DNA of 64,000 nt, from contig CAWCSP010000005.1 in NCBI GenBank assembly GCA_963798215.1, positions 259,539 to 323,538 of the forward strand, written 5' to 3'. The notes under the pieces are model-generated. The model was not told the origin of the DNA, did not search any database, and worked only from the letters and a program-made list of their open reading frames with translations. Made by a program: the position numbers and the translations under genes. This stretch comes from an uncultured Acidobacteriota bacterium. GTDB taxonomy: Bacteria > Acidobacteriota > Thermoanaerobaculia > UBA5066. Positions 14,781 through 58,901 of the stretch are shown in pieces (the stretch's first letter is position 1; each line of letters starts with the position of its first letter).

Positions 14781-14806
14781 GGACCGACAGGCCCTAGAAT
14801 CGGCGC

Positions 14807-15703: not shown

Positions 15704-15716
15704 CGCCCTCGCGCGC

Positions 15717-17687: not shown

Positions 17688-17696
17688 GGGCGCCGA

Positions 17697-18179
17697 TTAT
17701 GGCCGGGCGCGCGCACCCCGCGTCGCGAACCCCGCGTTGTGGGCGAAGGGCCGGACGGACGGCCTCGCGGCCGCGCGCGGCGACGGTGAGCGGCCGGCGT
17801 TCGGGGCCGCGTGCACCACCGGATGTACGTGGGGGCGCGGCCGCGCCGGGGCGCCGCCCCACCACCCGCCGTTCCAGATGCTTCCGTACGGCATGACGAC
17901 CTCGGGCGGCTCCGGTCCGGGGACGACCTCGGGCCCGGGGTTCTCTTCCTCTTCGTCCGGCGCGAGCGAGGGGAAGACCACGCGGCCGCGGGACACGGTC
18001 GTCTCGACCGCCGAGAAGCATCCGACGGCCCGCCGGCCCTCGCGGCGCTCGCGCGCGACGTCCGAGAGGGTGCGCGGGGAGGCGCTGACGGGCGTGCCGG
18101 CGGCACCCGTGAGGCTCAGCTCGACAGTGGGCGGCGTGGCCGTCTCGAGCGCGGCCAGGACCGCGAGGGCGACCAGCAT
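17697..18179 (-). CDS. Hypothetical small exported protein
   Basis: Hydrophobic N-terminus and Pro/Glu-rich middle, no recognisable domain. Codon usage is compatible with the flanking genes. Confidence 0.3.
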   Translation of the reverse strand: MLVALAVLAALETATPPTVELSLTGAAGTPVSASPRTLSDVARERREGRRAVGCFSAVETTVSRGRVVFPSLAPDEEEENPGPEVVPGPEPPEVVMPYGSIWNGGWWGGAPARPRPHVHPVVHAAPNAGRSPSPRAAARPSVRPFAHNAGFATRGARARP

Positions 18180-18228
18180 GAAGCGCCCCTCCCCCCGATA
18201 GCTTAGTCCCGCCGGCCGCCCCGCGCCT

Positions 18229-19884: not shown

Positions 19885-19917
19885 GGGCGTATTGTGCCGC
19901 CGCGAGAACCTGAAGTC

Positions 19918-20493
19918 ATGCACGGCCCGCGTGAAATCGAGACGAAATTCCGCGTCGCCCACCGCGGGAGGCTGGAAGGCCTCCTCGACGCGCTCGGCGC
20001 CCGGCCCGGCCCCCTGGAGGACGAAAAGAACGTTCTCTACGACGATGCCGCGGGCCGCCTGAAGTCCGAGGGGTGCGCGCTGCGCCTTCGGACCGTGGAC
20101 CAACGCGGCCTCCTGACCTTCAAAGGACCTCCGAAGATCTTCAGGGGAATCAAGAGCCGCCTCGAATGGGAGAGCGGGGTCGAAGCGCCGGCGGCGGTCG
20201 CCGGGATCCTCGAGGCCATGGGCCTCGGGCCCTCGTTCCGATACGAGAAGCGCCGCACGCCCTGGACGTTCGCGGACCCGGCGCGGCCGCTCGTCGTCGT
20301 GGACGAAACCCCGCTCGGGCTCTTCGCCGAGATCGAGGGTCCCGACGCCGCCGTGAGGGCGCTGGCAGCGGAGCTGGGCATCGCCGAGGCGGACTTCATC
20401 GGGGAGTCGTACGTCGCGCTCTGGCTCTCCGCGCGGGAGAAAGACCCTTCGCTGCCGCGGGACATGGTGTTCGCGGGAGGCCCGCGGCCTTGA
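19918..20493 (+). CDS. CYTH-domain protein (class IV adenylate cyclase / triphosphatase-like)
   Basis: EIETKFRV signature (ExExK), LRLR, and FAEIEG near the C-terminus. Confidence 0.75.
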   Translation: MHGPREIETKFRVAHRGRLEGLLDALGARPGPLEDEKNVLYDDAAGRLKSEGCALRLRTVDQRGLLTFKGPPKIFRGIKSRLEWESGVEAPAAVAGILEAMGLGPSFRYEKRRTPWTFADPARPLVVVDETPLGLFAEIEGPDAAVRALAAELGIAEADFIGESYVALWLSAREKDPSLPRDMVFAGGPRP

Positions 20494-21200
20494 TCGCGCT
20501 CGTCCTCGCCGCCGGCTTCGGCACGCGCTTCCGGCCCGCGACGATCACGACGCCCAAGCCGCTCCTGCCGCTGGCGGGGCGGCCGATCCTGTTCCACGTC
20601 TTCGACCACCTCCTCGGACAGGGCGCGGACCGCTTCGCCGTCAACGTCCACCACCTCGCGCCCGCGCTGCGCGCCGCGGTGGGCGACGCCTACGCGGGCG
20701 TCCCCGTCGCGTGGTCCTTCGAAGAGGAGATCCTCGGCACGGCGGGCGGCATCCGGCGCGCGTTTCTCCGCGGGCTCCTCGGCGAGCACTTCCTCGTCGC
20801 GAACGGCGACGTCCTGACGACTCTCCCGCTCGGGCGGCTCCTCGCGGCGCGGCACGCGCCGGGCGTCGTCTCCGCGCTCGCCGTCCTTCCGAACCCGAAC
20901 CCGGACCGGGACACGCCGCTCTGGGCGACACCGTCCGGCCGCCTCGCCGCGGTCGGCGGTCCGCGGCCCGGGGACGCGACGGGCCCGTGGCTTTTCACGG
21001 GCCTGCAGGCGGCGACGGATGCGCTCGTTCCGCGCATCCCGGAGGGCGTCACCGAGCTCGCGAAAGACGTCCTCGTTCCGTCGGCGGCGGCCGGGGACGG
21101 CGCGTTCGCGCTCGTCCCGTACGCCGCCTCGGACGGCCTCTGGTTCGACCTCGGGACGCCCGAGCGCCTCGCGGCAGCCGAAGCAGCGCTCGCGCGCTGA
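20490..21200 (+). CDS. Sugar-phosphate nucleotidyltransferase
   Basis: LVLAAGFGTRFRPATITTPKPLLPLAGRPIL and EILGTAGG. TTG start overlaps the CYTH stop (TTGA). Confidence 0.8.
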   Translation: MIALVLAAGFGTRFRPATITTPKPLLPLAGRPILFHVFDHLLGQGADRFAVNVHHLAPALRAAVGDAYAGVPVAWSFEEEILGTAGGIRRAFLRGLLGEHFLVANGDVLTTLPLGRLLAARHAPGVVSALAVLPNPNPDRDTPLWATPSGRLAAVGGPRPGDATGPWLFTGLQAATDALVPRIPEGVTELAKDVLVPSAAAGDGAFALVPYAASDGLWFDLGTPERLAAAEAALAR

Positions 21201-21222
21201 ACGAACGCGAGCGCGACCGGGG

Positions 21223-21762
21223 CTAGAGGGTCTTGCGGAGCGCGACGAGCGCGGCCGCTGCGAGGAGGAGCACGGTCACGGCCATCGCCCGGGGCGACAG
21301 CGCGGGAACGTCGGCGTTGCTCAGCCCCGACGCGTGGCCGGCGGCGACGAGGCGGGAGGGGGCGGTGGGGGCGGAGCACGTCGCGTCCAGACAGCTCGCC
21401 TCCTGTCCCGTGATGGTCACTGTCCCGCCCGCGTTCGTCAGGGCGGGGCTGAAAAAGAGGGCGAAGGCTCGCGTCCCGGTCAGGTCGCCGGCGTTGCTGG
21501 CCGCCGTGAGCACCTGCGCGGACATGGGGGGCAATCCGGGCGCCACGTAGTGGAGGGTCGCGCCGGTGAGGACCACGCTGCCCGCCGTCGTCGTGATGTT
21601 CACGGAGCTGTACGTGTTGGTGTCGGCGTCGTAGCTGAACGAGCCCGACGCGGCGCCCCCGTCCGAGAACGTCAGGCCGGAGAGAGTCCAGACCACCGGC
21701 TTGGCCGAGGCGGTGGCCGACAGGACGCTGAAGACGAGGAGGGCGAAGAGGGCCTTACGCAT
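21223..21762 (-). CDS. Secreted protein with IPTL-CTERM-like sorting tail
   Basis: Signal peptide MRKALFALLVFSVLSATASA. C-terminus is DVPALSPRAMAVTVLLLAAAALVALRKTL (motif + TM helix + basic tail). Confidence 0.65.
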   Translation of the reverse strand: MRKALFALLVFSVLSATASAKPVVWTLSGLTFSDGGAASGSFSYDADTNTYSSVNITTTAGSVVLTGATLHYVAPGLPPMSAQVLTAASNAGDLTGTRAFALFFSPALTNAGGTVTITGQEASCLDATCSAPTAPSRLVAAGHASGLSNADVPALSPRAMAVTVLLLAAAALVALRKTL

Positions 21763-40665: not shown

Positions 40666-43600
40666 ATGCACCTCTCCTCCGTCCCCCTCACCCTCGCCGC
40701 CACCGACCTCGGCCGCTTCCTCGCGTGCCGGCACCTCACCGGCCTCGACGTCGACGTCGCCTACGGCCGCCGGGCGAAGCCGCCGAAGTACCCCGACCCC
40801 TTCCTCGACCTCCTCATCAACCGCGGCCTCGCCCACGAGAAGGACTACCTCGGGAAGATCGAGAAGGCCGAGGCTCGGCCGTCCTCGACCTCACCGACAT
40901 TCCACGACGCCGACGCCGTCGAACGCACCCTCGAAGCCATGAAGGCCGGACAGCCCGCCATCGCGCAGGGCGCGCTCGCGGCGCGACGGCTGGTACGGCC
41001 GGCCCGACTTCCTCCAGAAGGTCGCAAAGCCCAGCTCCCTCGGCCCCTTCTCCTACGAAGCCATCGACACGAAGCTCTCCCGCGAGACGCGCGGCGCCAC
41101 GATCCTCCAGCTGTCGCTTCTACTCGGACCTGCTCGGCGCCGTGCAGGGCGTCCCGCCCGAGATCTTCCACGTCGTCACCCCGCTTCGCGACGGAGCAGT
41201 ACCGCGTCGCCGACTTCGCCGCCTACTACCGCCTCGTCAAGCGGCGCCTCGTGGAAGCGGCCGGGGGCGACATCGCCGCCCTCCTCGCCGCCAACTACCC
41301 CGAGCCCGTCGACTACTGCGACGTCTGCCGCTGGTGCAAGCCGTGCGACAAGCGCCGTCACGCCGACGACCACCTCTCCCTCGTCGCCGGCATCACGCGC
41401 CTCAACCGGCGCGAGTTCGAAGTCGAACGACGTCAAGACGCTCGAGCGCCTCGGCGACCTCGTCCTCCCCATCCCGTTCAAGCCGGCCAAGGGCTCGAAG
41501 GAGTCGCTCGAGAAGGCGCAGGGCCAGGCCCGCGTCCAGCTCGCGGGGCGCCGCGCCCACGCGCCCATCCACGAGCTGCTGCCCGTCGAAGACGGGCCGC
41601 GGCCTCGCGCGCCTGCCCGAGCCCTCGCCCGGCGACGTCTTCCTCGACCTCGAAGGCGACCACTTCGCCGAGGAAGGCCCGCGCGAGTACCTCTTCGGGA
41701 TGACGATCCTCGAAGGCCCCGGCAAGACGCGCCACGTCTCGAAGCTGGGCCGTCGACGCGGCGCCGACGAGAAAGCGCGTCTTCGAAGAAATCCTCGACG
41801 AAATCTCCCAGCTCTGGAAAGCCAACCCAGGGCTCCACGTCTACCACTACGCGCCCTACGAGCCCACCGCGTTCAAGAGGCTCATGGGCCGGCACGCCAC
41901 GCGCGCCCGCGAGCTCGACCGCATGCTGCGCGCCGAGCTGTTCGTCGACCTCCTGGCCGTCGTCAAGCAGGGCCTCAGGGCCAGCGTCGAGTCGTACTCC
42001 ATCAAGAAGCTCGAGGAGTTCTACGGCTTCACGCGCGAGGCCGACCTGCGCGACGCGGGCGCCGCCCGCCGGGCCGTCGAGTTCTCTCTCCAGACGGGCG
42101 ACCTCACCGTCCTCACCCCCGAGGTCAAACGCCTCGTCGCCCTCTACAACGAGGAAGACTGCGTCTCGGCCCTGCGCCTGCGCGACTGGCTCGAAACCCT
42201 GCGGCCCGACATTCCCCGGCCGCCGCGCAAGGACGGCGACGAGAGCGAGCAGCAGGAGCAGCGCAGCAAGGACGTCCAGGACGCGATGGACGCGCTCCTG
42301 AAGGGCGTTCCCGACGAGAAGACCCAGCGCACGAAAGAGCAGCACGCCCGCTGGCTTCTCGCCCACATGCTCGAGTTCCACCGCCGCGAAGACAAGGTCA
42401 CGTGGTGGGAGTTCTACCGGCTGCGCGACCTCACCGACGAAGACGACCTCCTCGACGAGCGCAAGGTGATCGCGGGAATGAGATTCCTGAAAAGGGTCGG
42501 AGGCACGAAGAAGTGCCCGATCGACCGATACACGTTTCCTTCGCAGGACATCGACGCCCGCGAAGACGACACGCTGAAGACCAGCGACGAAGGAACCCTC
42601 GGGCATATCGAAGCCATCGACCGCGACAAGCGCACCGTCGACATCAAGAAAACGCAGAAGAAGGCCGACGAGCACCCTTCGTGGGCATTCGTCCATTCCT
42701 ACATCTCCTCGAAGGAAATCGTCGCCTCCCTCATGAGCCTCGCCGCCGACATCGCGAAGAACGGCTTCACCCCGAAGTCCGCCGCCCGCGACCTCCTCCT
42801 CGGCAATCCCCCGCGCCTGAAGAAGGGCGCGTTCGGGCCGACGAAGGGCGAAGACCCGGTCGACTTCGCCAAGCGCACCGTCCTCTCCCTCGACCGCTCG
42901 CTCCTCGCCATCCAGGGCCCGCCCGGAGCGGGGAAGACGTACACCGGCGCGCGGATGATCGTCGCCTGCGTCGACGCGGGCCTCAAGGTCGGCATCACCG
43001 CCGTCAGCCACAAGGTCATCCGCAACCTCCTCGACGCCGTCCTCGAAGCCGCCCGCGAGATGAAGGTCTCCGTCCCCTGCGTCCAGAAGATCAAGACCGG
43101 CGCCGAGAAGTCCGACCCGCCCATCCCCGGCATCGTCGAAGTCACCGACAACGCCGGCGTCCTCGCCGCGCTCGACGACGGCTCCGCGCAGGTCGGCGCC
43201 GGCACGGCCTGGATGTGGTCGCGCGACGAGTACGCCGGCGCCGTCGACGTCCTCTTCGTGGACGAGGCCGGCCAGGCCTCCCTCGCCAACGTCCTCGCCA
43301 TGGCCCAGGCCGCGAAAAGCGTCGTCCTCCTCGGCGACCCGCAGCAGCTCGAGCAGCCGCAGCGCGGCACGCACCCCGAAGGCGTCGACGCCTCGGCCCT
43401 CGAGCACCTCCTCGCCGGCAGCAAGACGATGCCGAACGACCGCGGCATCTTCCTCGACAAGACGTGGCGCCTCCCGCCCGCCATCTGCGCCTTCACGTCC
43501 GAGCTGTTCTACGAAGGCCGCCTCGAATCGCGCCCCGAGCAGGAGCAGCAGAAGCTCTCCGGCGCGCCGCCCTACGAGGGCGCGGGGCTGTGGTTCGTGC

Positions 43601-44082
43601 CCGTCGAGCACGACGGCAACACGAACTCTTCCGACGAGGAAGTGAAGGCCGTCGAGGCCATCGTCGACACGCTCCTCAAGAAGGGCAGCCGCTGGACGAA
43701 CCAGAAGGGCGAGACGAAGCAGGTCACGCCCGACGACATCCTCGTCGTCGCCCCCTTCAACGCGCAGGTCAACCGCCTGCAGGACGCGCTCGACTCGAAG
43801 GGCATCCGCGTCGGCACGGTGGACAGGTTCCAGGGGCAGGAAGGCGCCATCGTCATCTACTCGATGGCCACGTCACGGCCCGAGGACGCGCCGCGAGGGA
43901 TGGAATTCCTCTACGATCTCAACCGCTTGAACGTCGCGACGTCGAGGGCCCGCTGCGCGTGCATTCTCGTGGCCTCGCCGCGCCTGCTCGAGCCCGACTG
44001 CAAGACGCCGAGGCAGATGCGGCTGGCGAATGCGATGTGCAGATATGCAGAGCTTTTCAGAAACGGTACTGGCGCACACTGA
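40666..44082 (+). pseudogene. RecB-like (TM0106-type) nuclease / RNase H-like / SF1 DNA2-type helicase fusion; frame broken about 6 times in the first 1.1 kb
   Basis: Stitched protein: LAATDLGRFLACRHL..., GWYGRPDFLQKV...YEAIDTKLS (PD-(D/E)XK), CDVCRWCKPC, DLEGDHF...YHYAPYEPTAFKRL. Intact helicase from 41884: GPPGAGKTY, FVDEAGQ, GDPQQL, VDRFQGQE, LNVATSRAR. Each frame step is +1, near 40983, 41119, 41187, 41427, 41594 and 41744. Confidence 0.8.
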
Positions 44083-44100
44083 AATCAAGAAGGAGTAAAC

Positions 44101-44274
44101 ATGCTCGACTTCATCTGTCATGGTTGCAACCAGAAACGTCCGATGACCCAGGTCCGCGAGTGCCCCACCTGCCACAGGGTTCTCTGCGATTCCTGTCGCC
44201 GTGGAGTGACGACCTGCAAGGACTCGGACAAGGGTACGGCCGGGTGCAGCGGTCAGCTGCAACAGAAGCGCTGA
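44101..44274 (+). CDS. Zinc-ribbon miniprotein (57 aa; below the ORF-track cutoff)
   Basis: Own translation: MLDFICHGCNQKRPMTQVRECPTCHRVLCDSCRRGVTTCKDSDKGTAGCSGQLQQKR. AGGAG lies 5 nt upstream. First gene after the GC drop. Confidence 0.5.
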   Translation: MLDFICHGCNQKRPMTQVRECPTCHRVLCDSCRRGVTTCKDSDKGTAGCSGQLQQKR

Positions 44275-44279
44275 GAATT

Positions 44280-44366
44280 CGCTTGAACGTCGCGATGTCG
44301 ATGGCTTCTTTTGCATCGTTTCTGTGGTCGCGCCGCACCTCCTTTCCTTCTGGAGATTGCAATGAC
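44280..44366 (+). repeat. Decayed second copy of the helicase 3' end (motif VI region)
   Basis: CGCTTGAACGTCGCGAtGTCGAtGGC... aligns with 43924-44010 at an offset of 356 nt: first 26 nt 24/26, roughly 75% over the first ~65 nt, weaker beyond that, with indels. Translates RLNVAMSMASFASFLW..DCN versus RLNVATSRARCACILV..DCK. Confidence 0.65.
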
Positions 44367-45838
44367 AGCTCGACGTTTGCCGCCTAACGCAGCACGCCTA
44401 GTTCACGCCCTGCGCGCAATCGGATACACGTTGGAGCAGGCGACGGCGGACATCATTGACAACTGGATCGCTGCGGGCGCAAAACACGTGTCCGTTCATA
44501 TAGAGACGGCCTCAGACGAAGTCAGCCGGATCTTGATTGCTGACGATGGAGGCGGAATGACGCGAGATCGCCTCTGGGAGGCGATGCGCTTTGGCTCCGA
44601 TTCCAAGTACGACGACGAACTCCGGAAAGTACGGCATGGGGCTCAAGCTGGCGTCCTTAAGTCAGGGCGAGGTCTTGGACGTATTTACGGCGCGGCAAGG
44701 AGAGCGGGTGGGCTGTCGCTTGTCAGTGGAAAGCATTAGCGACGACTGGCGGGTTGACTCCATCGAACAATCCGATTGCGTGCGTGAGCTCAGGTCAGGG
44801 AGGCTGCCGGGCGATTCCAAAACATCACGCTCGTAGTCTGGTCGAGCTTGGACCGTCTGAAGAATCGAAATGGAGCGGTGCGAACCGCCGAAGTGCTACT
44901 TCATCGTCTCCGTACTCATCTGGGGATGCACTTTCATCGGTTCATTGAACGAGGTCACCTCAAGATCAACCTCGAATCGGCCACCATCGGAGAGGATCCC
45001 GAAGACACGATCGCGGTTCCGGCTCTCAACCCATTCCAGTACGACGAACCCGGCCATCCGGAGTATCCGAAGATATTCAATCTAAGCCTGCCCAGCGACC
45101 ATCAGCTGCTCAAAGGCTCACATCGGCCGCCGCTGTCCGATAGCAGAGCCTATAAGCTCGACGGCAAGGTGGCCGCGAGGCAGGGCCTCTACTTCTACAG
45201 GCGGGACCGTCTTGTTCAAGCAGGTGGCTGGAATGATGGGACGAATGACGCCGAGCCTCACTCCTCGCTTGCCCGGGTCGCCGTGAACCTCCCAGCAGAC
45301 GTAGAAGACCTGTTTGCCTTGGATATTAAGAAGTCAGGAGTCCGCGAGCCACCGGGGTTTGCGGATTCGCTGCGAAAGGCAACTGCTCCCGACGGCACGG
45401 GTTTCCCTGAGTATCGCAGGACGGCACAGGACGTGTACCGGGGCGAGCTGCGCGTACTGATCGGAGTACGTTCCCCCTAGTGCCGTGGCTCGGAATCAAG
45501 GCAAGCCTACGTGCTCGAATCAGCGACCTGCTAGCCCATCGGACCACACGAACCCGGCGGATTGATATCAGCTGGGGTGACTTGGACGAGGGACAGGTCT
45601 TTTCGGTGGACAGGGACTCCGATTCACCGGTCCTCACCCTAAACCGTAGACTACGAAGGCGCATTCTGTCCGGCCAGCCGGCGTCAGGAGCGGATGCTCA
45701 GTTATTGAAGATTCTTCTCTTCCTCCTTCTCCGCGACGATCTCGATGCGGGAGGCTCTCAAAGCAAATTGCCGCCCGCGAGCAGACGATCAACAACATTC
45801 TGCTTCATGCAGTTATGTCACTCGAGTCCGATGACTGA
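44362..45838 (+). pseudogene. MORC-like GHKL ATPase (HATPase_c_3), frame broken about 4 times
   Basis: Bergerat N-box ADIIDNWIAAGA, ILIADDGGGM, GKYGMGLKLASLSQG, ITLVVWSSLDRL. Breaks near 44622, 44812, 45479 and 45750. Its stop overlaps the next ATG (ATGACTGA). Confidence 0.8.
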
Positions 45839-46822
45839 CCGGCACCGAACTTGGAGTCTGTTCAACGAGATGTGATCGACTCGCGCGCGCCCGCGCTAAT
45901 TCCTATAGACGGCAAGCCCGAGGCCGAGTTCTTCTTTGATCCGTCAGTGCCGCGGCTGGGACTTCGACACCCAGTGCCGCACATGGGGAGCGCGCCGATC
46001 TAGCCATCAGTTCGACAGCCCTGCGGCTGCTTTACGTTGTCAGTTCCCGGGGATCAGCCTTGGAACTTTCGACTGAAGTCCCTGGAAGTACCTTCCGGCA
46101 CTTCTATGGTTTTGCAACGGACGTAGTGGACCGCGTCCGACTGCTTGGCCAGCAACTCTCGGCGGCGCTACGTGAGTCGTTTCGCGAGATGCGCCGCCTG
46201 TTGCAGGCGGATAGCCAACTCACGCTGGCGAGCCAGCTCGGACTGATGGGCGAGCTCTTCGTGCTGAAGCATAGCTGTGCCGCGAGCGGTGCATCCGCGG
46301 TCCTGGGATGGATCGCGCCCCACGGCGAGCCGCACGACTTTGCTTTAGCGCACTGCGATGTTGAGGTGAAGGTATCGTTGAAAGCGGGCCATACCCACGT
46401 CATAAGCAGCCCCGAGCAACTCGAGCGGACGCCAGGGAGGCGGCTTTTCGTCGTTTCACTGCTTCTTGCACCGGCGGGCTCTGGGGGAAGGTTTCACGCT
46501 GGTGGAGTGCGTTAGATATGTGAGGGAACTGCTGATTGCGACCTGCCCCGAGCGAGAACTTTTCGAATCCCTCCTCACTAGGGTGGGATTCCGCGACGCA
46601 GATGGGTCGCTCTATGATGACCGTTGGACGTTCCGCTCACCCCCGTACGTGGTGCCCGTAACAGATAGCGTGCCGGCGCTGACCCGGGGCGCCCTGCACA
46701 ACGCGTTAGGCACGGAAGGTATGGCGCGACTCGGCTCCGTGGTCTACGAGCTCTCTTTCCAAGGGCTCGGCCATTCAGACCCAGACTTCGCGATCGTGAA
46801 AGGACTTCCCATTGAACGCTGA
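45831..46822 (+). pseudogene. DUF4420-type PD-(D/E)XK motif protein, frame broken about 3 times
   Basis: GLMGELFVL...GEPHDFALAHCDVEVKVS (D...ExK), LFVVSLLL, GFTLVECVRYVRELL. Breaks near 45870, 45985 (GGGG run) and 46485 (GGGGG run). Confidence 0.75.
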
Positions 46823-49728
46823 CGGCGACGGGGCTCTTACTGACCTGCTCACCCTCTATTCAGGCGACGATGGGCGCTTGGGGCCATCCGACATCGGCCG
46901 GGGCCTCCGCCAGCTGTCTGAAATGCGCGCAATCGCGGTTGAGGCTGAGGGGCGGGCGATCGCGACGGGCCGCTTGCTCTCGGCGGACCCGAACGACGTC
47001 TTCCGCTGCCGCTTCGAACGCGCCCTTCGTGTGTGGGATTATGCGGAGGCCGCGTGGACCGAGGGCACGCAGCCCTGCACAGAGCTCCGGCAGACAGCTC
47101 ATCTATCGGCTACTGGGGCTCTCGACCGACGAAGCAGCCCACTGCACGCAGCTAGTACCGGTTGCGACGACGGCGGAACGCGCGACCATCCTGGCCGCCG
47201 AGCACGCCGAGTGGTACACGCTCGACCGAAAGCGTGCGAATGCCTTCTATTGGCCGTCGCTGGTCAAGCACCTGGGCGAAGCGCGCAATCTTACCGGTAC
47301 CGCGCTTAACGAGCTGGATCGGATGACGGACCTCGTCATGCGCAACCTCTCCGATCCGTCGAGACGCGAGGCATTCCAGAGTAAGGGCTTGGTGGTCGGC
47401 TTCGTTCAGAGTGGCAAGACCACGACTTTACCGGCGTCATCGCGAAGGCGATCGACGCTGGATATCGGCTGATCATCGTCCTGGCTGGCACCGTGGACAT
47501 TCTGCGTGATCAGACACAGCGTCGCCTCGACAAGGACTTGGTCGGCAAGGAACTTCTGAAGGCTGAAACGCTACCTGGAAGAGCAACAACGGAATACGAA
47601 ACCGATGACGACTGGGACGAATTCACAGAGCATGGGGGCCTTCCGCGGAATCTCGGAGGCACAGACATAATCCGCCTAACGACCTCGAGTGCGGACTACC
47701 GCGCCCTCCGACGGGGACTTCACGCGCTGGGAACTGCTCGGACCGTATGGAGACCGACCCGTCTGGGATCCGCAGAACCTGCGGACGATACCCGCCAGAC
47801 CGTGGTTCTGAAAGAAGAATCCGAAGGCGTTGAAGGACTTCATTACCGACCTCCAGCGGTTGCAGCGAACCCCTCTCTCGGAGATTCCGCGCTCGTGATC
47901 GACGACGAGTCGGATCAAGCGTCACTCAACATCCGCAGGCGCACAAGGGCGGAGCGCGAAGCCGCCAGGAAGGAGCGCAACGCTCGCACGAGCATTAACG
48001 GCCACATCGTTGAGTTGTTGGGTGCTTTACATCGCAGCCAATATGTGGGTTATACAGCAACGCCATTTGCCAATGTCTTCGTAGATCCCAATGACGCAAG
48101 CGACCTATTCCCTAAGGACTTTATCGAGGTCCTCCGAAAGCCAGACGGCTACATGGGAATAGAGGACTTCTTCGGCCTGTCTGGGTCAGCCGCAACCGGT
48201 CGCAAGGAGGAAGACTTCGTGCGGCACGTGTCCGGCGCTGACGACGCGAAGCACAACCTGCCCGAGGCCATCGACGCTTTCCTCCTTGCTGGCGCGGTTA
48301 AGCTGTTTCGACAGAAGGCCGGGGAGCGAGTGTCCGTTCGCCACCACACGATGCTGATCCACACATCCTCCAGCCAGGATGCGCATGATGCCGACCGGGC
48401 GAAAGTGGAAGAGTGCTTCATACGGGGAAAGTATTTTGGGAAGGACTCATTGAAACGCCTTGAGACGCTTTATGAGAGCGATTTCGCCAGGGTTAGCGCT
48501 AAGCGGCGAACGGCCACGGGCGCCAGCACTCTTCCTGAGTTTGTCAAGCTGCATTCTTATCTCGAGGAGGTGTTGGATAAGGTGAAGGCCCGACCGGTAC
48601 GCGTGGTCAATGGTCGTAACCCGGGTGATACGCCGGATTTCGAGCGATCGCGTGTGTGGTCAATTCTGGTTGGAGGCACGAAGTTATCGCGTGGATATAC
48701 GGTCGAGGGACTGACTGTTGGTTACTACCGTCGGCATCCGCAGACCGCCGATGCCTTGATGCAAATGGGACGTTGGTTCGGCTTTCGGGAAGGCTATTCT
48801 GACCTTGTCAGGCTCTATGTGGATCGACCGGACGAGGATTCCGCGGACGGGTTCGACCTATTGGAAGCCTTCAAGGGTGTGTGTGCTGACGAACAAGTGT
48901 TCCGGGAAACGGTTCGTCGTTATTCGATCGGCACCAGCCCTAGGCTTCTCCCTAAAGACCTGCCGCCTGGTTCCCTGTCATCTTCTGCGGCCGACGTCCA
49001 ACAACAAGATGTTCAATGCCGTCCTTGTCTCCGAAAACCTCGGAGGTCTGTGGGCTGAGAGGACGGTCGCTCCACGGCAAACAAGACAGATTTCGGAGAA
49101 TCGGGCACTAGCTGAAGAGATGCTGTCTGGGCGCGAGATCCTAAAGGGCCGAGCGACCGCGGCTGACGGGGCATTTGAGTATTTATGGAGCTGGCTGCCG
49201 AACGACAAGATGGCGGCATTCCTCGGCGGGTATCGATGGGATTCGGGCATCTGATGCCCTTGCGACCGTCAAATCTTTTATTTCAGGTGCGCTGGGCGCC
49301 CCTGGTTTCAGTGACTGGGTAGTCCTGATGCCACAGCTAACGAAGAGTCCTCTTGGGGCGTGGACGGTTAGGGAGGGCGTAGGGGTTTCAGTTACAAAGC
49401 GCTCGCGGGATCCGCGATCGCCTTACGGGCGCTTCAAAGCCTTCAGTCACCCGGACATCGAGTCCTGATGGAGTCGATCGTGCGGGATCGAATGCGCCCA
49501 GCGCCATTGATGGCCGAACGCCTAGCCCCGTCAGTCGCTGGCTGTCTTATCTATCCGTGTCGGGACGGCGTATCCGAAGACGTCACCATCGGTTTTGCCC
49601 TTTTCTTTCCGGAGAACCAGATTCAAGAGAATGCCAGATTCTCAGTGCGAGATCCGTCAAGGCAGGACGACGTGGTGGTGAACGTGCGGCCGATCCGGTC
49701 GTCACAGCCGCGGAGGGGAAGAGTCTAG
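46812..49728 (+). pseudogene. Z1-domain protein (P-loop/helicase-like partner of GHKL-DUF4420 modules), frame broken at least 8 times
   Basis: GLVVGFVQSGKT..FTGVIAKAIDAGYRLIIVLAGTVDILRDQTQRRL, ALVIDDESDQASLN, YVGYTATPFANVF, LVGGTKLSRGYTVEGLTV, MQMGRWFGFREGY. Breaks near 47095, 47425, 47708, 47800-47812, 47888, 48965, 49245 and 49455. Confidence 0.75.
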
Positions 49729-49792
49729 AGGCCGGCTCTCGCTTCAACGGCGCTGAGCGTGGAGGTGCTGGACCGCTGGGCGACCCGAGGCT

Positions 49793-50226
49793 TCAGTAGA
49801 AAGGGCGGCGGCGCGTGGTCGAACGGATGCCACGGAGCACCGTCTCCACCGCTTCAGAGGCTCGCGTTTCGCACTCCCAGATCACGCGAACGGACCAGCC
49901 GGCGCGGCGGAGAGCGGCCGCCTTCCGTCGATCGCGCGCGGCGGTTTCGGCCCGCTTCTTCGACCAGAACTCCGGATTTGTTGCGGGTACGACGCGCCCG
50001 AATCGGCATGAATGAAGGTGCCAGAAGCAGCCGTCGACGAAGACGGCTGTCTTCAGTTTTGGGAAGACGAGGTCAGGTCGGCCGGGGAGCGATTTCCGGT
50101 GAAGTCGGAAGCGCATGCCGAGCCTATGGGCGATGCGGCGGACGATGAGTTTGCGGGTGTCGTGTCGCGGTCGCGGACGGCCTGCATGTTTCGCCGGCGC
50201 TGAGCCGGCGTCAGGACGTCGGTCAC
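49793..50226 (-). pseudogene. vsr: Very-short-patch repair endonuclease, one frame break
   Basis: TPAQRRRNMQAVRDRDTTP / KLIVRRIAHRLGMRFRLHRKSLPGRPDLVFP...FVDGCFWH...VIWECE. Break near 50150-50157. GTG start overlaps the endonuclease stop (GTGA). Confidence 0.8.
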
Positions 50227-51410
50227 GTCAAGAGCGGCCGCACGTGTGCGAGAAAGCCTTCGACACTCGTCAGGGAAGGCCGGTCGCGCAGGTGGAATTC
50301 CTTATGGAGACCCCTGGGAACGATGAGCTCGAGATTGGCGTCCTTCATCGCGGCCAGCTGTGCTGAAGAAATGCCACGCTGTAGCGTGAAGAGATGTTTC
50401 CTCGTAACGCGCCGTCCTTCGTGAAGGACCTGCCTCCATCTGTCGCGGCAGGTCATCTTCACGGCCAGCCACCGTGAGCTTCTCGACGGGAAAAGAGGGA
50501 TCCCGATACGCTTCTTCACTCGGAATGACGATGTCGGGCTCGCCCTCGATCTTCCTGGATCGCAGCGAGTGGGGAATTCCAGCGTCCTTGAGAATCTGGC
50601 TCACGTGATTTTCGAGCGAGCGACCGGCCCGCGACTTACGGCGGTTCGTAATGCTGCGGGCGGTCGTCAGGAAGTCGTCGATGTCGCGGAAGACACGGGC
50701 TATTTCGCGCTGACAGATCCGGCGCTCGACGAGCTGGAAGAGTCGGTATTCGCCTTCGACGAACCTGACGAGCTGCTCGTCAACGTCTGCGCGCCGGAAG
50801 TGCTTTGAAGCATTCGAGAAGCGCCGCGCGCGCCGCCTGCGAGAAGGCTTCGACCGGCGGGAACGTTTTGAGCGGCGAGGCAAACTCCAAAAACTTGCGC
50901 TCCACGCACTCACTCTCGGTTTCGGCCTTGGCAGCGCCCTTCTCGAAGATCGCCCACGCGTGAAGAAGTGAAACGCCGAGGACGCTCTGTACCTCCTCGA
51001 TGTCTTCATCCGTGTCCAGTACGAAGGCGCTGAACTCATCACGGGAATGGGGAACGATGATGAGCAGATTTCCCACCTGCTCGTCGACGAGAAACGGGAA
51101 GTCACGTCCGAACCTGGTCAGCCGGTACTCGCTGCGTGACTTCTCTCCATACCAAGTGACGCACGAATCAGTGATACGGCCGTCCTGCCAGCGAATCTTC
51201 AGAAAGTGCTTGTCCTTCCGGCCCTTCACGGGCGCGAACGGTGCGAACATCCTCCACGCTGATTTCGGGAGGTAGAACCCCGCCTGATGGCTGTCGGCGG
51301 CCTGATTCTTCGTCGCGCAGTCCGACGTCATTCGCCGAGATCACTTTGAGAAGAGCGTTTTCGTGCTCGAGGGCCTCTGCGATCGCTTCCTCGCAGGCAG
51401 GCGAGGCCAT
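50223..51410 (-). pseudogene. EcoRII-like type IIE restriction endonuclease, frame broken about 3 times
   Basis: EcoRII-N features: KVISANDVG..TKNQAADSHQAGFYLPK, SEYRLTRFG. EcoRII-C features: TNRRKSRAGRSLENHV, EPDIVIPS, KMTCRDRWRQVLHEG, KHLFTLQRGIS. Breaks near 51322, 50793 and 50470. Confidence 0.8.
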
Positions 51411-51414
51411 TTTG

Positions 51415-52616
51415 TCAGGCTCTCTTACGCCCGTACTCAGCGACGGGTGACTTCAGGAGGCAGTGCTTTTCCATTTGCCAGGCGAACGTCCGAAGGACCT
51501 CCCGGCCGACGGCCTCGACGACAGGAGGCACGACCGCGTTTCCGAACTGCCGATAGGCCCTGGTGTCCGACGACGATCGGATACTCGTCCGGGGAAGCCC
51601 ATCAGACGTGCGCACTCGCGCGGCGTCAGCCGGCGCGGCGACTGACGCTTCCCTTGCGGAATGAGGATTTCGGAGCCGTCTTTGTAGTAACGAGCACTAA
51701 GCGTGCGCGTGACGCCGCCGGGATCCGCGATTCCCAAAGCCGAAGCCGTTTCCCTTTTCTTTGTGGCGTCGCGCGTATTCCTGCAGGTAGGCCCAGAGAT
51801 GCTCGCTCAGCGTGTACTTGTCCGAAGGCTCTTTCTCCAAGATGTCCTGCAGCTTCGGGCGTGGCGCCAAGGGCGCGGCTGGGAACTCGAAAGGAGGAGC
51901 GGCGCCAGAACCTCGGCGATCGAAGCAGACGATGAAGATGCGTTCTCTGTGCTGCGGCACCCAAAGGGCGGCATCGATGACAGCGGCGTGGACGACGTAA
52001 TCCAAGTCCTCGAGCGTTTCGCGAATCACTTTCCACGTGCGGCCCGAGTCATGGGAGAGAAGATTCTTCACGTTTTCGAGGAAGGCGATCGGTGGCCGTT
52101 TCGCTTCAATCAGTGTGGCGAGCGTGAAAAAGAGATTCCCCTGGTCGGCGCAGCGGAAGCCGTGCGCGCGGCCGAGGCTGTTCTTCTTGGAAACACCGGC
52201 GATCGAGAACGGCTGGCAGGGAAAACCGGCCGCCATGATGTCGTGATCGGGGATGTCCTCGGCCCGCACCTTCCGGATATCGCCGGCCGGCTCTTCCCGA
52301 ACCAGGACTTGAGCGTCTTTTGCGCGTACCGATCCCACTCCGAGGAGAAAACGCAGGTGCCGCCGAGCTTCAGGAGTGCGGTCCGAAAGCCACCAATCCC
52401 GGCAAACAGGTCGACGAACCTGAAAGGAAGGGCGCCAGGTACAGACTTCTCGACGACGGCGCTGGGGCCGGAGAGGGGAATCTGCCCGCCGTCCTGGGCC
52501 TTGCGTAGGACTGACACGACGAACTCGCGTTTCGAGACGCCATAGCGGGCAGATTCTTCACTGATCCACGAATCGACCTCCGGGGGTACGCCCCGGACTA
52601 ACATGTCCCGGCTCAT
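51415..52616 (-). pseudogene. dcm: DNA (cytosine-5) methyltransferase with about 45-aa N-terminal extension, frame broken about 3 times
   Basis: Motif [55 protein letters not shown]. Breaks at 52296-52298 (CCC), about 51733, and 51591-51594 (GGGG). Confidence 0.88.
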
Positions 52617-52742: not shown

Positions 52743-53372
52743 TCACGCCTTTGTCGCTTTCGCCGGGACGTTCTTCACCTCGTCGGCGATACGTCGCAGG
52801 CTGGCGAAAGCAACCGCCGGTGGCACGGCCTCGCGAAGCTTCAGGATTCCCGCATGGCACGTGCGAATTTTCTGCCGGGACCCGCACGGACACTTCCAGT
52901 GGCCTTTGACATCCCCGTTGGCGAGGAGCTTCATGGCACTCAGTAGCCCTTCGGGCTCACTGATTTCAGTCCGCTCTCTGTAGAAGTCGAGGATTCCATC
53001 GATCCCGTGCCGTCGCTCGCCGAATGGCCAAACCCCATGGGCCAGATAGTGAAGGTAGCCCACGAAGAAGCTGTTGAGCGGGCCCTGCAGAAAAGAAAGA
53101 ACCGTGGAGCCCGCCGGCCAGTGGCTAAGCCCCTCCTCCGGGAGAAAAAGGCAGAGCTTACCGTCGCCGTCTACATGGTTCTCGTTAAGCTGGGGCACGC
53201 GGCCGCCCACCTCCCAAGCGACCGGAAAGCTGGCCGGGTGGTCACGTGCGAGGAGGACCTCGATCTGGAACCGGTCAACGACCACCGCCCCGACGTTAAC
53301 GGGGAGGCTGCCACGCACGCGGGCGGAATCACCCCCAATGACGAAGTAGAGGTTCGGGTAGGTGGAAGCCAC
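52743..53372 (-). CDS. E2/UBC-like protein (CBASS type II-short accessory) with SEC-C-like zinc knuckle
   Basis: FPVAWEVGGRVPQLNENHVDGDGKLCLFLP matches the E2 HPN-x-G-x-C-L pattern (candidate catalytic Cys). C-terminal HWKCPCGSRQKIRTCH. Reading frame intact. Confidence 0.65.
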   Translation of the reverse strand: MASTYPNLYFVIGGDSARVRGSLPVNVGAVVVDRFQIEVLLARDHPASFPVAWEVGGRVPQLNENHVDGDGKLCLFLPEEGLSHWPAGSTVLSFLQGPLNSFFVGYLHYLAHGVWPFGERRHGIDGILDFYRERTEISEPEGLLSAMKLLANGDVKGHWKCPCGSRQKIRTCHAGILKLREAVPPAVAFASLRRIADEVKNVPAKATKA

Positions 53373-53409
53373 CGACCGCTCCTCCCGTTTGAGGAACTCC
53401 GGCTGGCGC

Positions 53410-54317
53410 TCAAACCGAGGCCGGCGCGTCCAGCGGGTTTGCTCTCACCGTGATGATGGATGGCGCCCTCTGGATCGCCTCCCGTTTCTCGACTTCCGTG
53501 GCTTCCTCGATCCGGCCGAGGGACTCCCATCCGCCGCCCTCAATCCGGGCCAGGCTGTTGCGCGCGGCCGCGGACAGGAGCGTCTTCGTCGTGTCATTTA
53601 GTGCGTCAGAGAGGTCATTCCCGTCAGGATTCGCCGGGTCCTTCACGCACAGGGCTGACGCCTATCGCGGAACTGGGTCAGCACGTGCAGGATCTGATCT
53701 GACAGGGATTCGGACTTCTTGGACAGGAAGAGGAGGTCGATCACAGCGAGCTCGAGGACGAATGTCTTCAGATTGACCGCGTTTCGAACGTTCCAGAGCT
53801 TCATCAGGCGAATCGCGGGCCGCACGCCGCTGTCCCGGATGTGCGCGATGTGGATATCGAGGTTCGTCTTCTGGCGCCCCTTCTCGGCGCAGTTTCTGTA
53901 GAGGAAGACGTTGCCATCATCGCCGTCGATGAATCGGCCCGGGACCACGTCAATGTGGAAGTCGCCCCGCGACGCCGCCTTGGACCTCAACCTCAGGGCT
54001 GAAGGCTTCCGCTCGACGAAGTACTCCTTCTCGAGGACCGCGGCCGCATTCTCGTAAATGTCTTTCAAGGTATCCCCGGCCGTGGTGTCGTCGCGGCCGA
54101 AGCAGCACGCGATATCGAGGTCGTACGACTCGCGGATCATCGTGCACTTCGCCTTCGAGCCGGCATAACGGAGGGCGGGGGGCCGGGAAGCCCTCGATGA
54201 GGAGGCGGTCCACGTCGGTCCGACGCGCCCTGAGGGCCTTCAGCTCGTCAGAGTCTTCCTTCAGGGTCTGAGCTTCGATGACGGAGTCAAGGTAGGTATT
54301 CGGGTCTTTCTCGCTCA
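53410..54317 (-). pseudogene. Compact CD-NTase/SMODS-like nucleotidyltransferase, frame broken twice
   Basis: RYAGSKAKCTMIRESYDLDIACCF (GS...DxD), third acidic residue in DFHIDVVP, KDPANPDGNDLS. Breaks in the G6 run 54177-54182 and near 53655. ATG overlaps the cap5 stop (ATGA). Confidence 0.7.
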
Positions 54318-55531
54318 TAGGGATCCTTTGGTTACGGTGATGGTGGGGGGGTACCCCTGGGCACGACGGAAGTCGTAGACGAGGAGCGGGGGGTGCGACG
54401 CGGAGGAGGGCTCTGCCGCACGTGACAGCGACCGGCGCTGGCACCGCGGGAAAGAGGTGGATCACCTTCAGGTCGGGGTGGTTCTGCGCGATGACGCGCA
54501 GCGCAATCTGGTATTCGCGCTCGAACTCGTCGAGGTCAGCGCGCCGACTGAGGAATTGAGGGTGCGGTGTGGCAGAGGCCAGCTTCAATTCGTACAGCGT
54601 GAAGGTCGAGTCGATCGTCACCGGGAGCGCGGTGACGCCGATTGACCCGCTTAGCGGCAGCAGGAAGGCGACGCAACCTGCGTTAGTGCCCTGGCGCAGA
54701 ACTGAAAACTTGTAGTGCGCTGGGATTCCCTTCTCACGCCACTTGCGGTTGTTTTCGGCCCCCCGATGGCGCTGGTAGAGGGACGTCGGGACCTTGTCGC
54801 TCAACTGCGAGCCGAAGTGGATGAGGACCGGGATCGAGGCGATGGCAAAGACCGAAATGTGGTCGACCTGCTGCCGAGCGAGGCGGTCGGCGTACAGCCG
54901 AGGGAGCTCCTCGTCGATCTTGCGGGTTGCAGTCGTGAGGTACGCCTCGTCCCCACATCGTGATCGTGGAGAGGTCGATGAGGAACGGGTCGTCAGACTC
55001 GGGGTAGCGAGGTGCGACCGCCTCGTGGAGCTGGCCGGGCGGAAGGCTGAATTTCTGGCCAGCTACGTTACCCCGGAGCACGACGGCCGTCGTCCGCGAG
55101 TTGGGTCTTAGGGAGGTGCCATGCTCGATCCGCTTCTCGTGCTTCGTCTTGTATGCGCGAAGGACGCCCACCGTGTACTGCTCCGGGTGGTCGTCGATGA
55201 GCTTGTGGCACTCGGGACAAAGGAGCATCAGGTTCCTGACGTCATTGACGCCCTGTGCCGCGCGCGCGATGGGGTGTTTGCCGCGCGGGCCGCCGGCACT
55301 GAAAGCCACGATGTGGGCCACCTGCGCGAAGTTCCCCTCAGTCAGCGTGAGCGGGTGGCGGAGCAGGTACTTGTTGTGCCCGTCGAACTCGCACCGGCCG
55401 CCGGCACGCACCGCGAGGGCGAGGCGTCGGAACTGGGGTATCTCGCGAACGGGGCGAACGGGGCTCGGCTTGGAGGCCCTGCGGCAATGGTGTGCGTGCG
55501 GCCGATTCTTTGCCCTGGGCCGCCCCCGCAT
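54314..55531 (-). pseudogene. cap5: HNH endonuclease-SAVED effector (Cap5-like), frame broken twice
   Basis: HNH: CEFDGHN...HIVAFSAGGPRG...NLMLLCPECHKLID. SAVED: ISVFAIASIPVLIHFGSQL and VIHLFPAVPAPVAVTCGRALL. Breaks at 54951-54954 (CCCC) and 54388-54393 (G6). Confidence 0.8.
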
Positions 55532-57400: not shown

Positions 57401-57439
57401 GACGCGGATTCTCTCTCAGGCCACTCACCTCTTGCTCCC

Positions 57440-58301
57440 ATGATGGAGCTGGAACAGCTGCGGGTCTTCGTGGCCGTCGCGCAGACGCGGACGTTCGTGG
57501 AGGCCGCCGCGCGTCTGAACAAGTCACAGCCGGCCGTGACGATGACGGTGAAGGCTCTGGAGCGGGAGATGGGTGTGCCCCTCTTTGCGCGGGAGGGCCG
57601 CGGAAAGAGGCTGACGGCGGCGGGAGCGAGGCTGGCCGCGAAGGCCGCGGGCGTCCTGGAGGGCGCGCGGCGATTGAAGGAGGATGTCGCCGGAGAGCCG
57701 GAGGTGCCCCGGGGGCCCGTGCGGGTGGGGGCCGGCGAGGCCGCCATCGTCTACTTCCTGCTTCCGCTTCTTCGAAGGATTCGCGAGGCGTACCCGTCCC
57801 TGGCTCTCGAGGTGCGAAACCAGCGCGACATGGAGTCGTTCGATCAGTTGCTCGCGGGCGAGCTGGACCTGGCGGTTCGGTCCCGGGAGGCGCTGCCGCA
57901 CGGTTTGAGGTTCGAGCCGCTGTTCGCGTCGGATCGAATGCTGATCGTGCCGCGTGGTCACGAGCTGGCGGGGAAGAAGCGCCCGACGCTCAGAGACCTC
58001 GCTCGCCATGCGTTCGTGATCCCCCCGGCGGGTTCGACGTCGCGCCGCCTGATCGAGGCCGCGTTCCTGCGGGCCGGCCTGAGGCTGGAGATCGCGATGG
58101 AGGCGGGAGGCTGGGAGATCGTGAAGCGCCTGGTGCGGGCGGGGTGGGCGTGGCGGTGGGTTCCTCGCTGTGGCGATTCCGGCGGGGCATCTCTTCCCTC
58201 CGGATGTCCATGGGCTGGTGACGCGGGAGGGCACCGGCGCCTCATCCGCAACGGCCGCCGTGACGCGGGTGCTGGAGGAGGCGGGGAGGAGGGTGGGGTA
58301 G
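57440..58301 (+). pseudogene. LysR-family transcriptional regulator, frame broken twice near the 3' end
   Basis: LEQLRVFVAVAQTRTFVEAAARLNKSQPAVTMTVKALEREMGVPLF HTH plus a substrate-binding domain. Frame changes near 58142 and 58168 (G-rich). Confidence 0.8.
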
Positions 58302-58310
58302 GGGGTAAAC

Positions 58311-58901
58311 TTGAATCAGCGGCGGCGCCGAGCCCTCGCCTTGCGCACTTCCTCGAACACCGGAGGACGGCCCGCCGATGCCTTGATTCTTCGCATGCAG
58401 GAGTACTGGACGATGCTCTCCGGTGCCGATGGGCAGCTCTACGGCAGCCATTACACGTGGAACACGCAAAGCTGGGCCGACGAGCAGGCCCATCTGGGCA
58501 CGCCGGGCGTCGGCCAGCTGCACTACATGGAAGAGCTGTTCGCCTCCCGCCCCTGGTACAACCTGGTGCCCGACCAGTCGCACGCCTTCCTGACCGGCGG
58601 CCTGGGTACGTATACGGATGGGGGGCTCGTGCAGGATAATGATTACGCCACCGCTGCCGTCACACCGGATGGCAGTCTGGGCATGGTGTACGTGCCAACT
58701 GCCCGCACCGTCACGGTCAACCTCAACCTGCTGGCCGGTGCCGTTACCGCCCACTGGTATGACCCGAGCAACAACACTTTCCATTCAATAGCTGGCTCAC
58801 CGTTTGCGCCGTCCAGCGGTTCGCAGCAATTCACGACGCCTGGCAACAACGCAGCTGGCAACGGCGACTGGGTGCTGGTGCTTGATGCCAAAGGGGGATA
58901 A
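58311..58901 (+). pseudogene. C-terminal fragment of a DUF4038/GH140-like glycoside hydrolase (collagen-binding-like beta domain)
   Basis: PWYNLVPDQSHAFLTGG...DGSLGMVYVP...VTVNLNLLAG.VTAHWYDPSNN...GDWVLVLD matches the C-terminal part only. The catalytic barrel is missing. Confidence 0.5.

Follow-up and report, generated by a model that had tools for sequence, protein, structure and literature searches.

A frameshifted GHKL-DUF4420-Z1 operon converging on a dcm-ecoRIIR-vsr cassette in a variable island of an Acidobacteriota bacterium

Mza (mzaABCDE) was reportedly described by Gao et al. in 2020 as a five-gene anti-phage system. In E. coli, a homologue restricted phage T4 without growth arrest, and MzaD cut DNA in purified form and degraded phage DNA (bioRxiv 10.1101/2022.06.16.496414). 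Modules of this type have been known since 2008, when paraMORC/MORC GHKL ATPases, a superfamily II (SFII) helicase and a novel nuclease with restriction endonuclease (RE) fold were grouped with DCM, VSR and AIPR and in some cases also with a type II endonuclease; the same authors drew an analogy to MutL-MutH/Vsr-UvrD and cited the stimulation of Vsr by MutL (Iyer et al. 2008, PMC2292703). EcoRII-C was later listed among the nucleases near paraMORC systems (PMC8011034). Here we analyzed a stretch of 64,000 nucleotides (the window) of contig CAWCSP010000005.1 from the metagenome-assembled genome of an uncultured soil Acidobacteriota bacterium (Thermoanaerobaculia), in which an operon for a GHKL ATPase, a DUF4420 nuclease and a Z1-domain protein (the trio) runs head-on into a dcm-ecoRIIR-vsr operon (the cassette). 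With moderate confidence, we interpret the region as two defence modules, each mobile on its own, that meet tail to tail within a variable island at a hot spot, with the trio as a putative methylation-linked, restriction-like machine.

The locus consists of the following features, identified by the methods given with each of them:

44042-44361: left junction of the variable island, where similarity to the sister strain L170 stops (at 44042) and GC content drops from ~0.70 to ~0.60
44362-45838, plus strand: GHKL ATPase gene (HATPase_c_3; MzaB-like paraMORC); Pfam, PADLOC, frameshift-aware alignment
45831-46822, plus strand: DUF4420 PD-(D/E)XK nuclease gene (MzaD-like); Pfam, PADLOC, frameshift-aware alignment
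46812-49728, plus strand: Z1-domain superfamily 2 (SF2) helicase-like ATPase gene (MzaC-like); Pfam, PADLOC, invariant columns
49729-49792: spacer of 64 nt between the convergent stops
49793-50226, minus strand: vsr (very-short-patch repair endonuclease); Pfam, PADLOC Vsr
50223-51410, minus strand: ecoRIIR (EcoRII-N plus EcoRII-C); Pfam, alignment to intact enzymes
51415-52616, minus strand: dcm (C5 cytosine methyltransferase); Pfam, motifs, frameshift-aware alignment

The GHKL gene starts with an ATG at 44362, preceded by a ggaga ribosome-binding site, and its TGA stop (45836-45838) is overlapped by the DUF4420 ATG at 45831 (ATGACTGA). Similarly, a TTG at 46812, the first position of the Z1 gene, overlaps the DUF4420 stop at 46820-46822. 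On the opposite strand, the dcm TGA (51417-51415) is followed after 4 nt by the ecoRIIR ATG at 51410, and the tetranucleotide GTGA at 50226-50223 combines the GTG start of vsr with the TGA stop of ecoRIIR. The two operons meet at the Z1 TAG (49726-49728) and the vsr stop (49793-49795). All these junctions could be read directly from the DNA and agree with the geometry proposed earlier from the sequence alone (hereafter the sequence-only reading), i.e. stop/start overlaps on the plus strand, a 4-nt gap and a 4-nt overlap on the minus strand and 64 nt between the stops. No intrinsic terminator was predicted in the spacer, and its fold was no better than that of shuffled sequence (z = 0.89).

The six families were matched by Pfam already on the raw open reading frame (ORF) pieces, which confirmed the family names and positions given in the sequence-only reading. 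For the protein that it labelled "MORC-like", HATPase_c_3 was the only match, and HATPase_c_3 GHKL (paraMORC-like) is the better name. PADLOC assigned two GHKL fragments to MzaB (6e-15 and 2e-8) and the Z1 pieces to MzaC (2.7e-38 and 3e-10). Since the Z1 product keeps the Walker A motif GFVQSGKT, the DDESDQAS box and the Z1 signature MQMGRWFGFR, we identified it with the SFII helicase that Iyer et al. 2008 had called "distinct". An identical arrangement of the three genes, preceded by Dcm, occurs on the Arthrobacter plasmid p2MP, where the NCBI annotation reads ATP-binding protein, PD-(D/E)XK motif protein and Z1 domain-containing protein.

Judged by these similarities, the trio appears to be an AIPR-less relative of Mza with the order MzaB-MzaD-MzaC. 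Of the three core proteins of Mza, it shares GHKL (MzaB), Z1 (MzaC) and, by a weak match, the DUF4420-type nuclease (MzaD), and it is likewise located in a defence island. In contrast, the Mza order is B-C-D-E; in the window, MzaE was not detected by a single tblastn query and MzaA was not matched among the ORF pieces scanned with PADLOC, the PADLOC scores are much weaker than those of the sister strain L170, all genes are disrupted, and an EcoRII cassette is adjacent. The likeness to the paraMORC operons of PMC2292703 is similar: GHKL, SFII helicase and RE-fold nuclease stand in a predicted operon with DCM/VSR nearby, whereas AIPR, described together with those genes, was not detected here by the single query used. 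The comparative-genomic link of GHKL, PD-(D/E)XK and Z1 proteins to 5-methylcytosine (m5C) methyltransferases and Vsr, invoked in the sequence-only reading, is found in that paper. The same reading was not aware of a worked-out mechanism; PMC2292703 offers a prediction without mechanism. The module has nevertheless been studied: it was described there, and its relative Mza has been challenged with phage, with MzaD acting as a nuclease (bioRxiv 10.1101/2022.06.16.496414).

The minus-strand genes are a canonical restriction-modification cassette of type IIE that includes a repair gene. Once its frameshifts were repaired, the EcoRII protein could be aligned along 99-100% of its length with hundreds of intact enzymes (387-389 aa), at 51-57% identity, and the repaired Dcm contains the motifs FPCQPFS, ENV and GNAV. 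To characterize the surroundings of such enzymes, we surveyed 85 EcoRII loci, 5 from look-ups and 80 from a metagenome scan. Dcm was adjacent in 79 of these 85 loci and Vsr in 66; the order methyltransferase-restriction enzyme-Vsr (M-R-V) was present in 45/85, often with the same 4-nt overlap of the last two genes. The window's Dcm was 68-73% identical to the Dcm proteins of EcoRII cassettes and only ~30% identical to those of typical Z1 loci, and for Vsr the corresponding values were 52-61% versus 46-53%. Because the nearest counterparts of this Dcm and this Vsr are found in other EcoRII cassettes and M-R-V loci recur, we consider the cassette a self-contained mobile unit. It shares with the EcoRII systems that carry Vsr the two-domain EcoRII-N plus EcoRII-C protein, the M-R-V order and the 4-nt overlap, and differs from them in that all three genes are frameshifted and that CCWGG is not depleted: the avoidance of this site, a trace expected from past EcoRII activity, was not seen in the window (147 sites versus 125 ± 11 expected). 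Ahead of motif I, the N-terminus of Dcm is extended by ~64 aa (52437-52616, minus strand). Some methyltransferases of the Dcm class carry regulatory N-termini; a ribbon-helix-helix regulator was suspected here, but the extension had no Pfam match and we make no claim for it.

The insertion site itself is variable. The DNA of the sister Thermoanaerobaculia strain L170 matches the window at 95% identity as far as position 44042 and from exactly there continues into a different island (12185-21407) that holds dcm (fragmented), vsr, MzaB, MzaC, MzaD and MzaE (AIPR, fragmented), followed by an insertion sequence (IS) element; this island gave a strong PADLOC match to Mza, and its proteins were 34-47% identical to those of the window. 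Since L170 holds a different island at this position, we conclude that the site downstream of the helicase gene that precedes the trio is a variable defence locus with turnover of Mza-type systems that include Dcm and Vsr. The GC content of the window is ~0.70-0.75 up to ~44 kb and 0.57-0.63 thereafter. Between the helicase and GHKL genes, within the low-GC island, there is an intact ORF of 57 aa (44101-44271, plus strand) that contains 4 Cys pairs and weakly matches Prok-RING_2.

We then examined which genes accompany the trio elsewhere, using 84 loci of the nearest Z1 relatives, 80 of them from GTDB genomes and mostly from Actinomycetota. GHKL was a neighbour in 81/84 loci, Dcm in 64/84, Vsr in 55/84 and DUF4420 in 44/84. 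Classical type II endonucleases were less frequent: an NaeI-family gene (Pfam, 6.6e-36) was present in 10/84 loci and an Eco29kI-like gene in 1/84. The NaeI-family gene directly follows Z1 and mostly precedes vsr (L020, L021, L038, L039, L041, L043, L056 and L057, at ~12.3-13.3 kb; also L047 and L061); NaeI, like EcoRII, is a type IIE enzyme. We conclude that the trio has two steady partners, Vsr and a C5 methyltransferase, whereas the presence and the type of a classical type II endonuclease vary (NaeI, Eco29kI-like, EcoRII). EcoRII is therefore a facultative neighbour of the Z1 module and not its defining partner. Since Z1 relatives are usually flanked by Dcm and Vsr, a dependence of the trio on a neighbouring m5C methyltransferase is a reasonable expectation. 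Two further features of the Z1 loci were observed. In Streptomyces (e.g., L006-L009, ~12-19 kb), the block after Z1-vsr is conserved in ~25 loci and consists of two tandem Dcm genes, a DUF6339 protein, a helix-turn-helix (HTH) protein of ~700 aa and several unannotated proteins. A SEC-C-motif protein is encoded upstream of GHKL in ~32 Z1 loci, most of them without a DUF4420 gene.

Seen from the EcoRII side, a GHKL ATPase gene stands directly beside the cassette in 7 of the 85 loci, i.e. in 7 of the 60 with at least 1.5 kb of flank. One of them, L102, has the arrangement dcm-vsr-ecoRIIR-GHKL-DUF4420 up to the contig end. In L128, L133 and L134, GHKL is next to vsr, and in L090 (3354-8495), L106 (3602-8719) and L117 (2024-5306), the dcm-ecoRIIR-vsr cassettes adjoin a GHKL operon of another kind, which encodes an SNF2 helicase, a separate EcoRII-N/B3 protein (~140 aa), a GHKL ATPase and an HNH nuclease. 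The sequence-only reading had proposed a survey of co-occurrence; here EcoRII did not emerge as a regular partner of the GHKL/Z1 operon, as EcoRII was found in none of the 84 Z1 loci and GHKL-DUF4420 in a single EcoRII locus, and the reading overstates the specific link to EcoRII.

These frequencies bear on another explanation, namely that two unrelated defence modules were inserted at one integration hot spot and had neither a methylation mark nor any other function in common at any time. The cassette is autonomous, with no GHKL or Z1 neighbour in 78/85 loci; EcoRII is missing from all 84 Z1 loci; the operons converge and have no shared promoter; the sister strain carries a different system at the hot spot; and an operon of the cyclic oligonucleotide-based antiphage signalling system (CBASS) type adjoins. 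Such a pure juxtaposition would leave the trio without its own Dcm or Vsr, which 76% and 65% of its relatives have, and it leaves aside the GHKL genes that directly adjoin EcoRII cassettes in 7/60 loci and the fusion of EcoRII-N to GHKLs of the same family (see below). We assign it a substantial minority of the probability.

Starting from the GHKL of L102, we examined its 120 best relatives and found two GHKLs with an N-terminal EcoRII-N domain. The first (L172, 8001-13623) belongs to an EcoRII-N::GHKL-DUF4420-Z1 operon. The second (L173, 278-8851 of a 9.4-kb contig) belongs to a similar operon within a complete unit, EcoRII-N::GHKL-DUF4420-Z1-vsr-HNH_2, with a divergent dcm upstream. Over essentially the full length, the proteins of these loci are 40% (GHKL), 34-38% (DUF4420) and 42% (Z1 of L173) identical to those of the window, and they are as close to the window trio as any other relative. 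They have the same three-gene order and belong to the same family as the trio, and in L173 Dcm and Vsr are adjacent as well. The difference is that in L172 and L173 EcoRII-N is fused to GHKL and no EcoRII-C nuclease is present, whereas in the window GHKL begins at the ATPase and the whole EcoRII is encoded on the other strand. The tie between EcoRII-type recognition and the GHKL family of the window, which the sequence-only reading had seen in the gene neighbourhood, is thus borne out by the fusions. Taken together, EcoRII-type DNA-reading domains have repeatedly been recruited to this GHKL family, and a link of the trio to m5C methylation and EcoRII-type site reading is plausible.

Combining the analogy that Iyer et al. 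2008 drew to MutL-MutH/Vsr-UvrD with the activity of MzaD as a nuclease and with the fused EcoRII-N readers, we propose that the trio would form a restriction-like machine driven by ATP. Its GHKL dimer would clamp or loop DNA and license the PD-(D/E)XK nuclease at unmethylated target sites, and the Z1 motor would translocate along or unwind DNA from the cut. C5-cytosine methylation by the neighbouring Dcm would mark self DNA, while Vsr would repair the T:G mismatches that arise from deamination of m5C, thereby offsetting the mutational cost of m5C. In some relatives, the EcoRII-N-type domain fused to GHKL would serve to read the sites. The only Dcm and Vsr within the 64-kb window are those of the cassette. 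Because these are the sole methyltransferase and Vsr near the trio, one methylation mark probably shielded the host from EcoRII and the trio alike, if both modules were once active. The proposal of the sequence-only reading that one methyltransferase serves both modules can be kept in this conditional form, given that relatives are usually flanked by Dcm; against it, Dcm and Vsr are of the cassette type by similarity, and the juxtaposition looks like an arrival of two mobile modules at one hot spot.

The same observations on Vsr and on cytosine modification could be accounted for in two other ways. The trio could be a repair accessory that provides MutL-like (GHKL) and UvrD-like (Z1) helpers for T:G repair initiated by Vsr, especially in hosts without MutS and MutL. 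The adjacency of Vsr in 55/84 loci, mostly of Actinomycetota, as well as the analogy and the MutL stimulation of Vsr mentioned in PMC2292703, would fit this idea. However, relatives of the Mza type defend cells against phage, whose DNA is degraded by MzaD (bioRxiv 10.1101/2022.06.16.496414), Vsr is missing in about one third of the module loci, the module sits in mobile, variable islands beside restriction enzymes, and with Vsr at hand there would be no need for a dedicated PD-(D/E)XK nuclease; we consider a repair role unlikely.

Alternatively, the trio could be a modification-dependent (type IV-like) system that attacks DNA containing m5C or 5-hydroxymethylcytosine (hmC). EcoRII-N, which is fused to GHKL in relatives, binds unmethylated sites, and the usual adjacency to an active-looking Dcm (64/84) would make such a system self-destructive. 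The efficiency of Mza on T4 does vary with the modification state of cytosine, but unmodified T4(C) is restricted as well as T4(hmC) (bioRxiv 10.1101/2022.06.16.496414), and we regard this possibility as very improbable.

Returning to the reading we prefer, of two mobile modules with a methylation-linked trio, several observations weigh against it. First, the assignment to Mza is incomplete: the MzaD match on the DUF4420 piece is weak (E = 9e-5); tblastn with the L170 AIPR as a single query, a search of limited sensitivity, found no MzaE in the window and in the 84 Z1 loci, although the query protein itself matches MzaE at 3.6e-56 (PADLOC); and MzaA was unmatched among the ORF pieces scanned with PADLOC, a subset of the window ORFs. 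Second, the Mza system tested experimentally acted on T4 with C and hmC and weakly on T4 with glucosylated hmC (ghmC), and no methyltransferase requirement was reported for it (bioRxiv 10.1101/2022.06.16.496414); for every member of the family, methylation sensitivity is a prediction only. Third, the trio and the cassette converge and do not form one unit. EcoRII was absent from all Z1 loci in the hidden Markov model (HMM) search, and L102 was the only one of the 85 EcoRII loci with the window type of GHKL-DUF4420. With Dcm and Vsr of the cassette type, co-location may reflect the clustering of defence genes alone, and the joint location indeed looks like two mobile modules that landed in one hot spot. 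Finally, all six genes are disrupted, and no claim on activity in this organism can be supported.

The disruptions were counted with a purpose-written protein-to-DNA aligner that allows frameshifts, using several homologues per gene (5 for GHKL). Not one of the six genes is a single ORF, and in total ~22-25 frameshifts are spread across 8.25 kb (44362-52616):

GHKL: ~4 frameshifts, near 44603-44624, 44791-44827, 45441-45468 and 45743-45758
DUF4420: ~3 frameshifts, at 45854-45875, 45979-46042 and 46484-46490, with a possible in-frame stop at 46001-46003
Z1: at least 7 frameshifts, at 47071-47092, 47424, 47729-47771, ~47795-47815, 47889, 48967, 49226-49275 and 49440-49456
vsr: 1 frameshift, near 50155-50162
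ecoRIIR: 3 frameshifts, all +1, at 51298-51319 (within an insertion of ~25 nt), 50793-50807 and 50462-50468
dcm: ~4 single-nucleotide frameshifts, at 52290-52299, 51734, ~51590 and ~51570

Where close homologues permit placing the lesions, they are mostly 1-nt insertions or deletions outside long homopolymers. The seeming in-frame stop at 47809 in Z1 most probably results from a pair of 1-nt indels that compensate each other at a distance of 13 nt. At most 2 candidate nonsense codons are seen. Since all six genes are frameshifted, the locus is non-functional as assembled, and the "complete" EcoRII-type system of the sequence-only reading is contradicted by the frameshifts in dcm, ecoRIIR and vsr.

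After repair, the proteins still look like members of their families. The profile searches proposed in the sequence-only reading gave scores above the Pfam gathering thresholds for all six, with near-complete profile coverage: DNA_methylase 274 bits for Dcm (profile positions 1-322/324), EcoRII-N 56 bits and EcoRII-C 177 bits (1-164/165) in one polypeptide for EcoRII, Vsr 104 bits (1-73/74) and 115 bits for DUF4420. Among the columns with a conservation of 90% or more in homologues, the repaired proteins retain 77-97% (Dcm 97%), which is equal to or slightly below the retention in equally distant intact homologues; for Z1 and GHKL, equally distant homologues were the standard because a Streptomyces-dominated homologue set biases the comparison. 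A near-identical intact copy of the island was not found in a collection of 5.8 billion proteins, where the best matches were 46% (Z1) and 57% (EcoRII) identical.

The frameshifts may have arisen in the genome or in the assembly. In the latter case, they would stem from errors in the consensus of a long-read metagenome assembly, in an island that varies between strains and has poor coverage, and both modules would be intact and active in the organism. The damage consists almost entirely of 1-nt indels, including the compensating pair, nonsense codons are scarce, and the repaired proteins keep highly conserved columns (87-97%) near the level of equally distant intact homologues. Damage is also seen in unrelated neighbours, namely CBASS, LysR and the helicase gene in its N-terminal third, and sister contigs submitted to ENA in the same series are named in the style of long-read assemblies, one of them with its own indel cluster. 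On the other side, ~40 kb of native upstream genes are open (e.g., PolA of ~915 aa, HutI and a PHP-domain protein), and three native genes are 93-99.7% identical to orthologues and free of frameshifts. The indels are not at long homopolymers, and there are larger lesions, i.e. the ~25-nt insertion in the EcoRII N-terminus and a glycosidase gene cut to a remnant. Moreover, two conserved positions of GHKL motif I are substituted (S to W and D to A), and in the N-terminal segment of the helicase gene substitutions rise together with indels (8-10% versus 1.5%, ratio ~4.5:1). A methylation-linked basecalling error tied to homopolymers, CCWGG or TCGA was considered and rejected: there were no long homopolymers at the frameshift sites, the sites in the island showed no association, and proximity to TCGA means little since this motif is so frequent (636 per 64 kb, ~1 per 100 bp). 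Taken together, we regard real decay as the somewhat likelier origin, and a consensus artefact as a serious possibility that falls short of an even chance.

The helicase gene deserves separate mention. Its N-terminal third (40687-41746, plus strand; RNase_H_2/superfamily 1 (SF1) helicase) required 8 frameshifts to follow an intact homologue of 1163 aa (P0164), whereas the helicase part (41746-44064, plus strand) required none. In the sister strain L170, this segment carries indels of its own, and the density of substitutions is 5-6 times higher there. Because substitutions climb together with indels, this segment looks like natural decay; either the domain was lost by decay with the helicase kept, or the segment is a patch of assembly noise.

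Beyond dcm, the CBASS-type operon (52743-55531, minus strand) has an intact gene for an E2-like protein (52743-53372), while its oligonucleotide cyclase gene is fragmented (53643-54140 and an upstream piece) and the gene for the HNH-SAVED effector is split (54734-55531 and 53950-54804). Further downstream (57416-58898, plus strand), a LysR regulator breaks off at position 158/209 of the substrate-domain profile, and beside it an apiosidase-like glycosidase remnant consists only of the C-terminal end and a collagen-binding-like domain.

The locus itself is of little weight, being a disrupted or badly assembled copy of two known module types; it warns that defence islands of long-read metagenome-assembled genomes may hold many frameshifts of uncertain origin. 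More useful than the locus are the comparative by-products, i.e. the partner frequencies and the fusions. One speculative extension, which we hold to be doubtful, is that GHKL-nuclease-Z1 modules are "second-stage" restriction motors of a plug-in kind, for which a type IIE system supplies the site reader. This borrowed reader may be a fused EcoRII-N (L172, L173), a standalone EcoRII-N (L090, L106, L117) or a neighbouring EcoRII/NaeI (the window, L102, Streptomyces loci). If this were true, the motor would detect, in their unmethylated state, the sites under protection of the resident Dcm and would processively destroy DNA that the classical enzyme alone cuts inefficiently, and the window would represent the unfused state of this partnership between motor and reader. 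The EcoRII-N::GHKL fusions are the most useful lead, with L173 as an intact experimental candidate: they provide a testable hypothesis for how ATPase/nuclease/helicase systems may find their targets and discriminate self from non-self.

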